From the IMG/VR virus record IMGVR_UViG_3300029885_000167: a stretch of 4,652 nt of DNA, one strand, 5' to 3'. A program made the translations under genes and the position numbers. Shown piece after piece: positions 1-4,652 of this stretch; position 1 is the stretch's first letter; every line of letters begins with the position of its first letter. Source of the stretch: a virus. Taxonomy: Duplodnaviria; Heunggongvirae; Uroviricota; Caudoviricetes. The notes beneath the pieces are model-generated. The model ran no database searches. It had not been told where the DNA came from and was given only the letters and a program-made list of their open reading frames with translations.

Positions 1-23
1 GAAAAACGAGTATTTTTAGTCAT
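1..23 (-). CDS. IS3-family transposase OrfA, N-terminal 7-8 codons only (3' end outside window)
   Basis: ATG at 21-23 (minus strand) preceded by AAGAGG; translation MTKNTRF(S) runs off the window edge. Matches the remembered start of IS629/IS1203 OrfA. Confidence 0.5.
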
Positions 24-77
24 CCTGTTTACCTCTTTCTCAGGAAGTTTAGTCTCCAGGATTCCCGGGGCGGTTCA
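1..77 (-). mobile_element. Terminal 77 bp of an IS3-family insertion sequence (IS629/IS1203/IS3411-like), partial; the rest lies beyond the window start
   Basis: Minus-strand sequence from position 77 downward reads TGAACCGCCCCGGGAATCCTGGAGACTAAACTTCCTGAGAAAGAGGTAAACAGG ATG ACT AAA AAT ACT CGT TTT TC. It begins with the TG(A) typical of IS3-family ends, has an AAGAGG Shine-Dalgarno 7 nt upstream of an ATG, and the ORF opens MTKNTRFS, which matches my recollection of the IS629-group OrfA N-terminus. Only about 8 codons are visible, so the family assignment is from memory of the end sequence, not a search. Confidence 0.55.
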
Positions 78-161
78 GTCTTCATCCTCCTCCCAGTCAA
101 GAGATGACAGGAAGGATTTAAACTCTCTGTTACCAGGAAATTTCAAAGTTAAATCTTTCAT
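75..161 (-). pseudogene. 28-codon ORF (MKDLTLKFPGNREFKSFLSSLDWEEDED*) translationally coupled to the tail fibre gene; probably the 5' remnant of a gene cut by the IS insertion
   Basis: Its ATG (159-161) overlaps the stf stop TGA (158-160) in an ATGA arrangement. The reading frame runs for 28 codons and its TGA stop (75-77) is exactly the first three bases of the putative IS end. I do not recognise the peptide. Confidence 0.4.
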
Positions 162-2179
162 ACTGCCTCCTTGATTTGCCTGTCATTTAATTCTTTAAAC
201 CAGACTCTGAAATTTCTGATGTGTCCAAACAAATGACGCGTTCCTGCTGCGGTCTGCCCACCAAACCGGTACGATGTTGCTGTAACTCCAAATATTTTAC
301 CATTAAGGTTTGTTGTATAATTACCATTGCATATTGCATTTACTGATAAATCAGATTTAGCTCTCACACCCACAATGAACCTTTCTCCATCTGAGGCAAT
401 TTGTGGCTGAACCATTCCTACGTTGGCGCTTATCTTTCCTGTTGCAACAAACCCCAGCGATAAATAATTATCATCAATACTGTGCCCTCCAACATCAAAT
501 ATCCTTGGCGCAACATTGGGCGGTGTACTCCAGTTCCTGCTTACTTCGCACAATACCGTAAAAGGCCGTGTTGACAGGTTATTCTGCGATGGGATAGTAA
601 CTACATCACTTGCGCGTGTTGTTGGCATTGTAGTTACAATAAATGACGATGCCGTATTGCCCAGTTCAATTTGCGGCGTCGTCATGGTTAATGTTGAGTC
701 ATCATAGAATGGCTCATTACTTATTTTATTTGTCATATAAAAAGCACAGTTAACGGTATCAATGTCCGTATTAGCTGTATAAGTGGCCTCATAGTAGGTC
801 CACTCGCCCTGTTGTTCAGCTTTGGCTGTTATAAGGGATGTATTACCGCTTACTGTTGCGATCCGGGTATCCAGATCAAGATAAGAGTCAGCAGAGAAGG
901 TATCTGTTCCACCAATAATAACTGAAACTCTTAACCTGCATCGTGCTTTAGCGCCTTTAACCCGGCACGAAAAAGTGAAACATTCACCACTTGCCAGCGG
1001 GAATCTGTCTGCTGCAACCACACCATGCACAGTATAGCCACCTGTTGTTCCCACTATACTTTCCGTGGGTGTCACCGTGGCATAATTGAACCCCTGTTTA
1101 TCAGTGCCAAATGTTTTATTCAGTGCGGAATGAACAGTCCATGAGTCTGGTTTATTTGAGTTCCTCAGATAATTTGTCCTCTGTCCTTCAATCAATAAGC
1201 CATCGCGCTCAAATCGCGGTTCGTCAACTTCAGCAAGCTTGAGTTGGCCGGACTTATTAATATACGTTGCTGTTGAAGCACGTTTAAACTTAACAATCTT
1301 GTCGCCTGGCATTGTTATTTCATCGTCACCAATAACTATCTTTTTATAAGATGGCGAAAAACCCGTAATCATATCCAGTGAATCGTTAAACGGTATCCAC
1401 ACATCAGGCAGCGGCGGCACTATATTCGCACAGGGCTCTGCAGTCACTTCCGCTGCGGCTTCTGCGCGGTCTGCCGCCTTTTCAGCTCGTGTCGCTGCCG
1501 ACAGAGCCTCATCCTTTTTCTGCCCGGCCTTTGTTGCGTCTGCTGCGGCCTCCCGCGCTTTTGTGGTGGCGACTCCGGCATTTTCAGCGGCTGACTCTGC
1601 ATTACGGCGGGAAGCCTCTTCACTGTCTGCGGAGGCTTCTTCTGACGCACGGGCATTTGTCTCTGAACGTTCTGCCGCTGTTGCTGCGTTTTGTGCGGCT
1701 GTTTTTGAAGAAGCTGCCGCTTTCGCGCTGTTACCTGCATTCGTCTCTGATGTTTTCGCCGCGTTCCTGGACGATGCCGCTGCTGTTTCTGATTTCTTTG
1801 CTGCCGCTGCGCTCTGAGAGGCGGCTTCAGCGTTGCGTGCCGCCTCTTCCACCATCTTTTCAAAACGATACAGTGCCTCCGGACAAACATCATCTTCTGT
1901 TGCAGCGCCCAGAAAATCATTCAATGTCCCCGGCTTAGAATCCTCATACACGGTGATGGTCCCGGCATGTGAAGGCGGAAAACCTTCAACCAGCAGGGCG
2001 ACGCTGTACTGGCCATACTCAACATCCATGCTGTAACGTCCGGCTTCATCCGGATTTTCTGAGGCCACCGTGTTCACCACAACTGTGGTGCTGTTACGTT
2101 TTGCTTTGAGCTGAATGGTGCAGTTCTGTATCGGTTTTCCTGCACCGTCTTTCAGCACACCTGAAATCTGTACTGCCAT
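158..2179 (-). CDS. stf: Side tail fibre protein, Stf family (673 aa): conserved N-terminal anchor domain, Ala/Ser/Thr-rich repeat shaft, divergent C-terminal putative receptor-binding domain
   Basis: Complete ORF with stop TGA at 158-160. The N-terminal ~125 aa (MAVQISGVLKDGAGKPIQNCTIQLKAKRNSTTVVVNTVASENPDEAGRYSMDVEYGQYSVALLVEGFPPSHAGTITVYEDSKPGTLNDFL...) is near-identical to the N-terminus of lambda Stf and E. coli K-12 StfR as I recall them. Start set at ATG 2177-2179, which has GGAG 5 nt upstream; the GTG at 2183-2185 used by the ORF track overlaps that Shine-Dalgarno and gives an MNM extension absent from homologues. Confidence 0.9.
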   Translation of the reverse strand: MAVQISGVLKDGAGKPIQNCTIQLKAKRNSTTVVVNTVASENPDEAGRYSMDVEYGQYSVALLVEGFPPSHAGTITVYEDSKPGTLNDFLGAATEDDVCPEALYRFEKMVEEAARNAEAASQSAAAAKKSETAAASSRNAAKTSETNAGNSAKAAASSKTAAQNAATAAERSETNARASEEASADSEEASRRNAESAAENAGVATTKAREAAADATKAGQKKDEALSAATRAEKAADRAEAAAEVTAEPCANIVPPLPDVWIPFNDSLDMITGFSPSYKKIVIGDDEITMPGDKIVKFKRASTATYINKSGQLKLAEVDEPRFERDGLLIEGQRTNYLRNSNKPDSWTVHSALNKTFGTDKQGFNYATVTPTESIVGTTGGYTVHGVVAADRFPLASGECFTFSCRVKGAKARCRLRVSVIIGGTDTFSADSYLDLDTRIATVSGNTSLITAKAEQQGEWTYYEATYTANTDIDTVNCAFYMTNKISNEPFYDDSTLTMTTPQIELGNTASSFIVTTMPTTRASDVVTIPSQNNLSTRPFTVLCEVSRNWSTPPNVAPRIFDVGGHSIDDNYLSLGFVATGKISANVGMVQPQIASDGERFIVGVRAKSDLSVNAICNGNYTTNLNGKIFGVTATSYRFGGQTAAGTRHLFGHIRNFRVWFKELNDRQIKEAV
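1439..1852 (-). repeat. Low-complexity imperfect tandem repeat region encoding the Ala/Ser/Thr/Glu-rich fibre shaft (stf residues ~110-247)
   Basis: Translation shows reiterated SETNA / AAxS / AAE-like units (…AAKKSETAAASSRNAAKTSETNAGNSAKAAASSKTAAQNAATAAERSETNARASEEASADSEEAS…). The DNA is GC-rich with repeated gctgc/gccgc units and produces long shadow ORFs on both strands (1444-1920 -, 1489-1938 +, 1563-1817 +). Confidence 0.6.
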
Positions 2180-2184
2180 ATTCA

Positions 2185-2188
2185 CTCC
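2185..2188 (-). promoter_or_regulatory. Shine-Dalgarno (GGAG) for stf
   Basis: Minus strand reads GTGGAGTGAATATGGCA: GGAG, a 5-nt spacer, then the stf ATG. Confidence 0.5.
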
Positions 2189-2190
2189 AC

Positions 2191-2218
2191 AAATAAAAAA
2201 GGCACCATTTCTGGTGCC
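2191..2218 (-). terminator. Rho-independent terminator-like hairpin between J and stf
   Basis: Minus strand reads GGCACCA-GAAA-TGGTGCC, a perfect 7-bp GC-rich stem with a GNRA-type tetraloop, followed directly by TTTTTTATTT. It sits 19 nt after the J stop codon and ends 12 nt before the stf ATG. Confidence 0.6.
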
Positions 2219-2237
2219 CGAATTTGGGTTTTAAAAT

Positions 2238-4652
2238 TCAACTGATACTGATGCCGGCTGTTGATTTCTTCATCACGACAACAAGAAGGTCGCTGATACT
2301 GGTCGTTGGCGTCCAGTTATTTGCACCATATGAAGAAACATTGAAAGTCAGGGTGACATGGCCGTGTCCGGCAGGCATATCAATGACTGATGAAAATACC
2401 CTGCTGACATCCGTCGCGGGTTGCTGAAAGATTTCCTGTCCGTTCTTCAGCACCTGCAGCTTACAGGTTGAATACCAGTATGACTGTTGGTTGTTGCTGT
2501 TGAAGTTTTCATGCTTACCACCGCGAAACAGAACGGGGGGGACGACTATCTGACGGTCAAAAGCCTGGTCATCGTACACAGTGACCGTTATTGTACCGCT
2601 GGCATAACTGCCATTTCTCGGAAAGGCTTTTCCCACCGTTTTGACAATATCACCTTCAATCTGGTTAGCTGACAGTTTTCCCAGAATCCGACAGTTCTGG
2701 TTAATCGTGACATTATTGAGCGTCCCGGAGTTCGCATTCACGTTACCGCTGATATCCGCATTTCTCGCAGAAAGTCGACCATCAGGTGTCAGTGAAAACG
2801 TTGGGGGATTGCCACCGCTGGTAATGGTGGGAGCCGTCAGATATTTCAGGAACACTTCGTTCATGAATATCTGATCGCCCTGCCCAACAAACATCGGCTT
2901 TGTATTGCCATTCGCAGGATTAATCATCGCAATCCTGTCCGCCGCCAGCAGCACCTGACTCTGCATGCCGTCAGGGGTGTTCTCAATACCGGCACCAATA
3001 CCCGCGATATAAAGGCGTCCGTCCTGCATCTGCTGCAGCTTCACAGCCCACATGCTGTTCAGGTTATTATTTGTATCAACCTGAACCTTCTGTATCTGCT
3101 GAATTGCCGCACTCTGGTCTTCCAGTTTCTTATTGACGGTCTGCGTGATTTCATTGCTGACATCCGTAATGGACGTCCTGATTTCAGCCAGGTCAGGCGC
3201 AAGCTGACCGTTATCAATCTGCGTCCACAGCTCCTGAGCCAGATGGCTTTTCCCTATCTCGCCTTTGAAAAAATCCAGATAGCCGGATGCATCATCACTC
3301 GGCTGGCCAACAGCCTCCACAAATGCCGATTTGCCAACGGTGTTCACACTGCGGATGTAAAAATAATAATCATGGCCCGGTTTGATATTGATACTGGCAG
3401 CTATCCAGTACAGCGCCGTGCCAAGATAGCGGGCTGTGGTTTCAACCTGCCTGATATCCGCAATCCGCTTTTCCGAGAACCAGAACTCAAACTGTACCGT
3501 CGGATCATAAACGGCAAGATGGGGCGTGGCGGTTATCTGAAAATACCCCGGTGTCAGCTCAATCTGCGACGGCGCTGCCGGTGCGGCAATCCGGAACGAT
3601 ACCGATGCCGGATCGCCCTGCTGCCCCCACGCATTTACCGCCCGGACTGTCAGCCTGTAGTTCCCCAGCGCCAGTTGCCTGAAGCGGTATGTGGTTTCCG
3701 TCGTCCGGGCCATGCTGACCAGCCGCTCACTGCCGTCGTCCGCTGCCACGGTAAGGCGAAGCAGGAAGCTCACGCCCTTCACCACCTTCGGCGTGTCCCA
3801 TCGCGCCAGCACCTGATATTCCCCGCTGTCTGTGGTGACTTCGGCGGTCAGGTGCTGCACCGCTGGCGGCGTGACACCATTCACCGTGCCGCTCTGGTCG
3901 CCGTCAAAGTGCGCCCCGTTATCCACGATGGCTTCTTTTTCCGGTACATGCTGCACGGCGGTGATGGCATACGTACCGTCATCGTTCTCCCGGATACTCA
4001 CACAGCGGAACAGGCGCTGGCGCAGCGTCGGCAGCTTCAGCCCCCATACGCTGTATTCAGCAACACCGTCAGGAACACGGCTCACTTTTACCTTCACGCC
4101 GTCGGTGACGGACTGAACCTCCACGCTGACCGGATTGCCACTTCCGTCAACCAGGCTTATCAGCGTGGTACCGGAGGATGGCAGCGTGATTTCACGGTCG
4201 AGCGTCAGCGTCCGGGTCTGGCTGTTCACCGCCAGCACACGACCACCGGTGCTGATACCGGCATAGTCATCATCACAGATTTCAATAACATCGCCCGGTA
4301 CATGGCGAAGCCCTTCTGCGCCGACGCTGAAATCCACGGTCTGCGTTTCCAGCAGTTCCGTTTTAATCAGCCACAGCCCGGCGCGGTGTGCCTGCCCCCG
4401 ACTGGTACAGCCAAAGGCATCCATCTTCGTGACATTACGACCGTAACGGGCAATGGCCTGCGTATCCTCCACGAGCTCTGTCGCCGTCTCCCAGCCGTTA
4501 TCCGGGTCAATCCAGTTCACCTCAACGGCATTATGGCGGTCCTTCAGGGCGCTGAAGCTGTAGCGGAACGGCGCGCCATCATCCGGCATCACCACATTAC
4601 TGCGGTTATAGGTCCACACCTTATCTGATGGTCGGTCCTGCACGAACGTCAG
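2238..4652 (-). CDS. J: Host specificity protein J (tail tip / central tail fibre), C-terminal ~804 codons; N-terminal portion lies beyond the window end
   Basis: The frame is open to the window edge. Translation from the edge reads [50 protein letters not shown]…, near-identical to lambda gpJ from about residue 330 as I recall it; the track's initial M is really an internal GTG (Val). Stop TGA at 2238-2240. The C-terminal ~340 aa are much more diverged from lambda J than the preceding ~460 aa. Confidence 0.95.

Follow-up and report, generated by a model that had tools for sequence, protein, structure and literature searches.

The stretch of viral DNA analysed here (4,652 nucleotides, nt; hereafter the window) is IMG/VR record IMGVR_UViG_3300029885_000167, assigned to the Caudoviricetes, and it contains the 3' two-thirds of a gene for J, the tip attachment and central tail fibre protein. 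A first-pass annotation, made from the sequence alone, had described this J as a mosaic, in which a lambda-like body is joined to a divergent C-terminal third that includes the receptor-binding domain. The description is accurate, but the mosaic is not a novel one: the gene is an allele of phage 21 J, and its mosaic appearance reflects how the lambda class of J alleles is already known to relate to the phage 21 class. The allele has already been sequenced and experimentally studied as phage 21 J. On the combined evidence, the window very probably represents the distal part of a phage 21-type J in a phage 21-like Escherichia coli prophage, with LamB as the most likely receptor.

The assignment rests on a direct comparison with J of phage 21 (CPT_21_21, UMO75436.1, GenBank OL657228, 1160 amino acids, aa). 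The window protein aligns to phage 21 J aa 357-1160 without gaps, at 98.4% aa and 96.7% nt identity. Differences affect 13 of 804 aa and 80 of 2415 nt and are spread evenly, with none of the aa changes in the last 136 residues. By domain, identity to phage 21 amounts to 96% in the shaft, 98% in the straight fibre and 100% in the receptor-binding domain (I1025 to the C-terminus). This collinear near-identity includes a shaft that is 28 residues longer than that of lambda. Because the match is ungapped and even, the gene is mosaic only relative to lambda and not relative to phage 21. The divergent 1,026 nt taken alone are 97.6% identical to phage 21, ev017 and several ECOR prophage-derived phages, and 97.7% identical to mEp460_4F5.

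The gene encodes a lambda-type tip attachment protein J. Five Pfam domains (Phage-tail_3, Ig_J, Ig_J_second, Phage_Tail_Tip and Ig_GpJ_C) occur in the lambda order, all above the gathering threshold. The features of J, including fibronectin type III (FNIII) domains and the point at which identity to lambda changes, are as follows.

2238..4652, minus strand: 3' two-thirds of J, from the open reading frame (ORF) and its translation; 804 codons plus the stop codon (2238-2240), with the N-terminal 356 codons beyond the right edge of the window.
4227..4652, minus strand: part of the hub domain, Phage-tail_3 (PF13550, E=1.3e-33, aa 1-142); 95-99% nt identity to lambda.
3579..3893, minus strand: first FNIII/Ig-like domain, Ig_J (PF24421, E=2.2e-41, aa 254-358).
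3267..3575, minus strand: second FNIII/Ig-like domain, Ig_J_second (PF24489, E=1.4e-39, aa 360-462); the last lambda-like domain, 92-94% nt identity to lambda.
3254..3255, minus strand: identity breakpoint relative to lambda J, from a maximum chi-square scan; boundary of the second FNIII domain and the alpha-helical shaft.
3108..3260, minus strand: alpha-helical shaft of phage 21 type (window aa 465-515), placed by alignments, lambda domain limits and low-confidence AlphaFold2 (AF2) helices.
3123..3215, minus strand: span of the 28 residues that lambda lacks (21 + 7), which also holds three aligned residues (EIT); from MAFFT gap columns against lambda, 434 and A8.
2721..3107, minus strand: central straight fibre, a beta-prism of phage 21 type, Phage_Tail_Tip (PF09327, E=2.2e-31, aa 516-644).
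2241..2648, minus strand: receptor-binding domain (window aa 669-804, equal to phage 21 aa 1025-1160; PF12421, E=1e-37); Ig_GpJ_C itself covers 2241-2609 (aa 682-804).

Relative to lambda J (NC_001416; gpJ NP_040600), the protein falls into two unequal parts. Window aa 1-464 match lambda aa 357-820 at 448 of 464 positions (96.6% aa, 95.1% nt identity), whereas aa 465-804 match at 170 of 340 (50% aa, 56% nt identity). The first-pass annotation had placed near-identity in residues ~1-460 and a drop to about half from GYLDFFKG onward, and both estimates are borne out by the alignment. Its remark that the final ~100 aa differ substantially also holds, since the last 100 aa are only 40% identical to lambda J, and the C-terminal peptide that it quoted is exactly present. 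The maximum chi-square scan locates the change at 3254|3255, within 10 nt of the annotated position of 3263. At this point, nt identity drops from 95.1% on one side to 56.8% on the other (chi-square 518; the highest value among 200 permutations was 13.5), coinciding with the end of Ig_J_second and the start of the shaft. Beyond the breakpoint, identity to lambda is 20% in the shaft, 64% in the straight fibre and 46% in the receptor-binding domain (5 gap positions). Identity to lambda J is thus not uniform across the fragment, nor is the C-terminal domain identical to the LamB-binding domain of lambda (lambda J aa ~990-1132), with which it shares only a Pfam family and a fold.

Base composition does not mark the junction. 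The divergent part is indeed more AT-rich, as the first-pass annotation had noticed, with a G+C content (GC) of 0.496 (2238-3263) against 0.586 (3264-4652). However, GC drops from 0.61 to 0.50 at ~3572, which is upstream of the breakpoint by about 300 nt and within sequence that retains 92-94% identity to lambda (GC 0.505 over 3264-3572). Lambda J has the same profile, with values of 0.606, 0.519 and 0.541 over the homologous stretches. Because the drop lies off the breakpoint and is common to lambda J, GC was rejected as a sign of a swap.

Substitution rates are more informative on the origin of the divergent part. Nonsynonymous (dN) and synonymous (dS) divergence was estimated by the Nei-Gojobori method for each J domain. 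Relative to lambda, dS is 0.16 (0.158) in the body, 1.04 in the straight fibre and 1.96 in the neck plus receptor-binding domain, and it is saturated (infinite) in the shaft, while dN/dS is ~0.24. Relative to phage 21, dS remains at 0.06-0.15 throughout. The conserved body is about equally far from lambda (dS 0.158) and phage 21 (dS 0.147). Saturated synonymous sites, an abrupt junction and an insertion or deletion (indel) of 28 residues together indicate that stretches of different ancestry were joined by recombination, rather than separated by a burst of adaptive substitution. The recombinational swap proposed in the first-pass annotation is therefore upheld by the jump in dS from 0.16 to at least 1.0 across the junction with dN/dS below 1. 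The J specificity region is a known hotspot of variation and adaptive substitutions (Maddamsetti et al., 2018; PMC6646904), and rapid diversifying selection on a lambda-like J could in principle have produced the divergent C-terminus in place, with no recombination. We regard such an origin as highly improbable. It is effectively ruled out by the dS profile, and it would have to accommodate a change of identity within a few nt, the 28-residue indel and natural alleles in which the same modules are combined otherwise.

Three of these alleles are instructive. P0004 joins a lambda-type shaft and fibre to an exact phage 21-type receptor-binding domain, whereas P0053 and P0060 carry a phage 21-type shaft and fibre with a receptor-binding domain of the A8 type (see below). 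P0083 and P0085 have a further type of receptor-binding domain. From these combinations and the breakpoint of phage 434 J, exchanges recur at two boundaries, FNIII-2/shaft and fibre/receptor-binding domain. It has been reported that the specificity region often recombines with the J body (Maddamsetti et al., 2018), and the J proteins of phages identical to the window were sorted into four clusters (Mathieu et al., 2020). In the window, the shaft, fibre and receptor-binding domain were inherited as one phage 21-type block, which suggests co-adaptation.

The receptor is the point on which the first-pass annotation has to be revised, as it had proposed a specificity different from that of lambda. 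Phage 21 of accession OL657228 was made lytic and tested (Borin et al., 2023, bioRxiv 10.1101/2023.04.13.536812). It requires LamB; it did not lyse a lamB knockout, whereas cells lacking ompC supported its growth (Borin et al., 2023; Gerbino et al., 2024, PMC11336670). The ancestor is given as LamB-only and was propagated on the ompC knockout (Gerbino et al., 2024). Since the receptor-binding domain of the window is identical to that of this LamB-requiring phage, its receptor is most likely LamB, the same as that of lambda. The substitution I1025T gives phage 21 the use of OmpC in addition, and further substitutions add OmpF (Gerbino et al., 2024). This gain of OmpC by one substitution occurred in 12 of 12 replicate cultures (Borin et al., 2023; Gerbino et al., 2024). 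The phage 21-type domain is close to OmpC use in sequence space. Two codons bear on these results.

2646..2648, minus strand: codon I1025 (numbered as in phage 21); the window retains the ancestral Ile in a local context identical to phage 21.
2508..2510, minus strand: codon 1071, GAA (Glu); the window agrees with the GenBank record, whereas the tested phage 21 stock has Lys.

The difference at codon 1071 arises because the tested stock carries G18903A relative to GenBank (Borin et al., 2023, preprint Methods), which maps to E1071K inside the receptor-binding domain. It leaves a single-residue caveat on the transfer of the knockout results to the window.

Structural comparisons place the domain closest to A8 gpJ. 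A8 is a chimera that adds a natural receptor-binding domain to lambda J (through ~aa 970), and cells lacking both lamB and ompC receive DNA from it when they are complemented with OmpC (Brodel et al., 2024, PMC11338833). Among PDB sequences, phmmer ranked "A8 gpJ 713" (9wca and 9wcb; E=1.8e-145) ahead of lambda gpJ (8xcj and 8iyk; E ~1e-95). The first-pass annotation had proposed comparing a model of the C-terminus with known J receptor-binding structures, and the AF2 model of the last 186 aa (predicted local distance difference test, pLDDT, 81) reproduces their folds. In Foldseek, it matches 9wca, a closed state, at 82% identity and 9wcb, A8 gpJ with OmpC, at 83% (E=1.9e-22 and 2.8e-22; template modelling score 0.72-0.77). 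It then matches 8xck and 8xcj at 52%; these are lambda gpJ structures with and without LamB, of which 8xcj is lambda-LamB. The receptor-binding domain of the window has 100% identity to phage 21, 81% to A8, 46% to lambda and 42% to phage 434. It is of the same subtype as the A8 domain by sequence and fold, and the two align without indels at an identity of 81% (alignment) or 83% (Foldseek). The supplements of Brodel et al. (2024) did not reveal where the A8 domain comes from, and no paper describing 9wca and 9wcb was found in the literature.

These relationships bring in a second possibility, that the window domain with E1071 naturally uses OmpC, alone or together with LamB, as the A8 domain does. 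The different receptor claimed in the first-pass annotation would then be correct. The 81% identity to A8, the OmpC-dependent delivery by A8, the rank of 9wcb among the best fold matches, the one-step gain of OmpC by phage 21 and the mismatch between the tested stock and the window all point in this direction. In contrast, ancestral phage 21 failed on the lamB knockout and was routinely grown on the ompC knockout, and the window retains I1025 in place of the OmpC-enabling Thr. In addition, 26 of the 136 domain residues differ from A8, several of them in clusters that are possibly in loops. We therefore consider natural use of OmpC unlikely, although it deserves some weight.

Several observations nevertheless weigh against LamB as the receptor of a functional phage. 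The stock tested for LamB differs from the window by E1071K, and single substitutions are known to alter receptor range in J. The closest solved relative, A8 (81-83% identical), binds OmpC and not LamB. Identity to the lambda domain is 46%, so a shared receptor would be unpredictable from sequence alone. The J clusters of Mathieu et al. (2020) did not track host range among these phages, and an insertion sequence (IS) of the IS3 family just 3' of stf in the source genome puts the inducibility of the prophage in doubt. For phages 100% identical to the window (Lambda_2E9, 1H12 and the Lambda_ev series), Mathieu et al. (2020) give only the mismatch between J cluster and host range. The SNIPE paper that mentions PhiR47 holds no receptor data for that phage, and the receptor is not named in the genome announcement of phage 21. 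A more speculative proposal, to which we assign a low probability, is that the wild E1071 allele may in nature prefer another receptor than that measured in the laboratory, for example by using OmpC, or both LamB and OmpC, on non-K-12 hosts, and that its longer shaft may tune triggering. If so, this very common prophage allele would be a natural intermediate between the LamB-binding and OmpC-binding classes.

With LamB as the most likely receptor, a working scheme can be drawn from the lambda gpJ-LamB mechanism (PMC11101478). J would form a trimer at the siphovirus tail tip, judging by near-identity to lambda and phage 21 J and by PDB 8iyk and 9wca, and would serve as both tail-tip hub and central fibre. 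Its domains follow the order of hub domains, two FNIII/Ig domains, alpha-helical shaft, beta-prism straight fibre and C-terminal Ig-like receptor-binding domain. The shaft, straight fibre and receptor-binding domain, which derive from an anciently diverged allele class, would form the signal path as a distal signal-transducing module. By analogy with lambda, the receptor-binding domain would insert its loops into a porin trimer of the outer membrane. The domain bases would then spread, the beta-prism would twist and the helical shaft would flip, after which the FNIII strings would detach, the hub would open and DNA would be ejected. The shaft of lambda J comprises residues 809-861 (PMC11101478). 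The 28 extra residues in the window, equal in length to four heptads, might lengthen the shaft; when the last 364 aa are modelled as a monomer with AF2 (pLDDT 48.5), the shaft can be read as "helical" at most.

The IS3-family element abuts the region (window 1-77), and RefSeq gives the adjacent stf as a pseudogene fragment and a separate coding sequence (CDS), as might be seen if J were a decaying remnant in a cryptic prophage with no current function. This is hardly credible, given that no stop interrupts the 804 visible codons of J and that J is 100% identical to J of plaque-isolated phages. The stf ORF is likewise intact in the window, and a frameshift in the unseen 5' third is countered by the full-length gpJ (1160 aa) annotated in NZ_CP043406. 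In the receptor-binding domain, dN is 0 and dS is 0.11 relative to phage 21, which indicates purifying selection.

The allele is widespread. Window bases 78-4652 are 100% identical to phages Lambda_2E9, Lambda_2G7a, 1H12 and Lambda_ev058, ev066, ev110 and ev245 (megablast against phage genomes); Lambda_2E9, 1H12 and the four ev phages are plaque-forming isolates. Four E. coli chromosomes, such as NZ_CP043406, match the entire window, bases 1-77 included, at 100% identity. Of 5,426 complete E. coli genomes, 490 have at least 80% of the window. The sequence for the final 186 aa, which spans the distal straight fibre and the receptor-binding domain, occurs in 1,081 records at 95% identity or more, and about one-fifth (~20%) of complete E. 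coli genomes have a window-type receptor-binding domain at 95% nt identity or more.

The window contains two genes, both on the minus strand: J, which runs off the right edge, and stf, which follows it after a spacer of 52 nt (2186-2237).

158..2185, minus strand: stf (side tail fibre), directly downstream of J; ORF of 675 aa, PF08400 phage_tail_N, E=2.8e-67.
2190..2219, minus strand: intrinsic terminator-like hairpin and T-run between J and stf; scan match GGGCACCAGAAATGGTGCCT, then TTTTTATTTG.

In NZ_CP043406 (locus L004), the genes are arranged as tape measure, M, L, K (C40 peptidase), I (tail assembly), gpJ, stf, the IS3-family element, two small ORFs and sitDCBA. In the tail operon, J thus has the L, K and I homologues on its 5' side and stf on its 3' side, which matches the order in phage 21. 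The sitABCD iron/manganese transporter genes (L004 12481-15930) lie 3' of the tail fibre genes, as in phage 21, and a sit operon has been found on ~70% of infant-gut lambda-like phages (Mathieu et al., 2020). Window bases 1-77 are the end of the IS3-family element (IS629-like; L004 10576-11900), which lies ~80 nt past the stf stop in the four E. coli genomes and is absent from the phage isolates and most genomes. Insertions of IS4 or IS5 in the same J-stf region were seen in other genomes and in phage Lambda_4B5, and the region seems to attract insertion sequences.

The stf ORF is intact in the window (675 codons; L004 8474-10495). RefSeq divides the same DNA of NZ_CP043406 into a pseudogene fragment, 'prophage tail fiber N-terminal domain' with the C-terminus missing, and a CDS named 'phage head spike fiber domain', a split that looks like an annotation artefact. 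Stf is itself a mosaic: its first 160 aa have 73% identity to lambda Stf, identity to phage 21 Stf is 63% overall, and there is a weak CBM_4_9 match near aa 442-483. In a low-complexity stretch rich in Ala, Glu, Ser and Lys (~aa 120-250; window ~1440-1830, minus strand), GC peaks locally (0.55-0.61) and AT skew is strong (to -0.56); the stretch also creates long spurious ORFs in other frames, at 1444-1920, 1489-1938 and 1563-1817. Opposite J, an antisense ORF of 461 codons (3243-4628, plus strand) was dismissed as a mechanical effect of codon bias opposite the GC-rich J, and its status as a gene is unsupported. Among other records, the J region of MW057783, 'Campylobacter phage CJLB-4' (48,361 bp), gives tblastn scores equal to those of lambda, which suggests contamination or a deposit of lambda DNA with a different name.

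As a discovery, the allele has small value. It is present in GenBank and in many sequenced phages and prophages, experiments have examined how it uses receptors and how readily it evolves, and modular recombination of J is documented. Its main value is as a caution on inferring a receptor from divergence to lambda J. A domain that is 46% identical shares LamB (lambda and phage 21), whereas one that is 81% identical (A8) binds OmpC; consequently, prediction of the receptor from J sequence divergence is unreliable. The question has practical relevance, as this receptor-binding domain is common in E. coli genomes and related domains are used to retarget lambda-based delivery vectors.

Among known systems, phage 21 is the closest counterpart. 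It has the same J length class, terminator, stf and sitDCBA arrangement as the source prophage, with its terminator annotated at the same J-stf site as the window hairpin. Its Stf is 63% identical to that of the window over the full length, and the IS3-family element inserted after stf in the source genome is a difference from phage 21. In lambda and 434, lom, encoding an Ail/OmpX-type outer-membrane protein, lies between J and stf (cf. L001 3966-4586), whereas the window, like phage 21, has only the spacer at this position. Lambda gpJ (PDB 8iyk, 8xck and 8xcj) has the same Pfam domain order and fold as the window J. Phage 434 J (CPT_434_21, OL657226), the classical OmpC-using host-range allele, belongs to the same family and is also mosaic relative to lambda. 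However, its lambda-like part extends over the shaft and straight fibre, and divergence starts only at the receptor-binding domain, unlike in the window. Equivalence to the 434 OmpC allele was rejected on this different breakpoint and on the 42% identity of the receptor-binding domains. A8 gpJ (Eligo Bioscience/Bikard lab) is the best structural match, but it is engineered, uses OmpC and differs from the window at 26 of 136 domain residues. Domains of the A8 type are nevertheless found naturally on phage 21-type shafts and fibres, as in P0053 and P0060.

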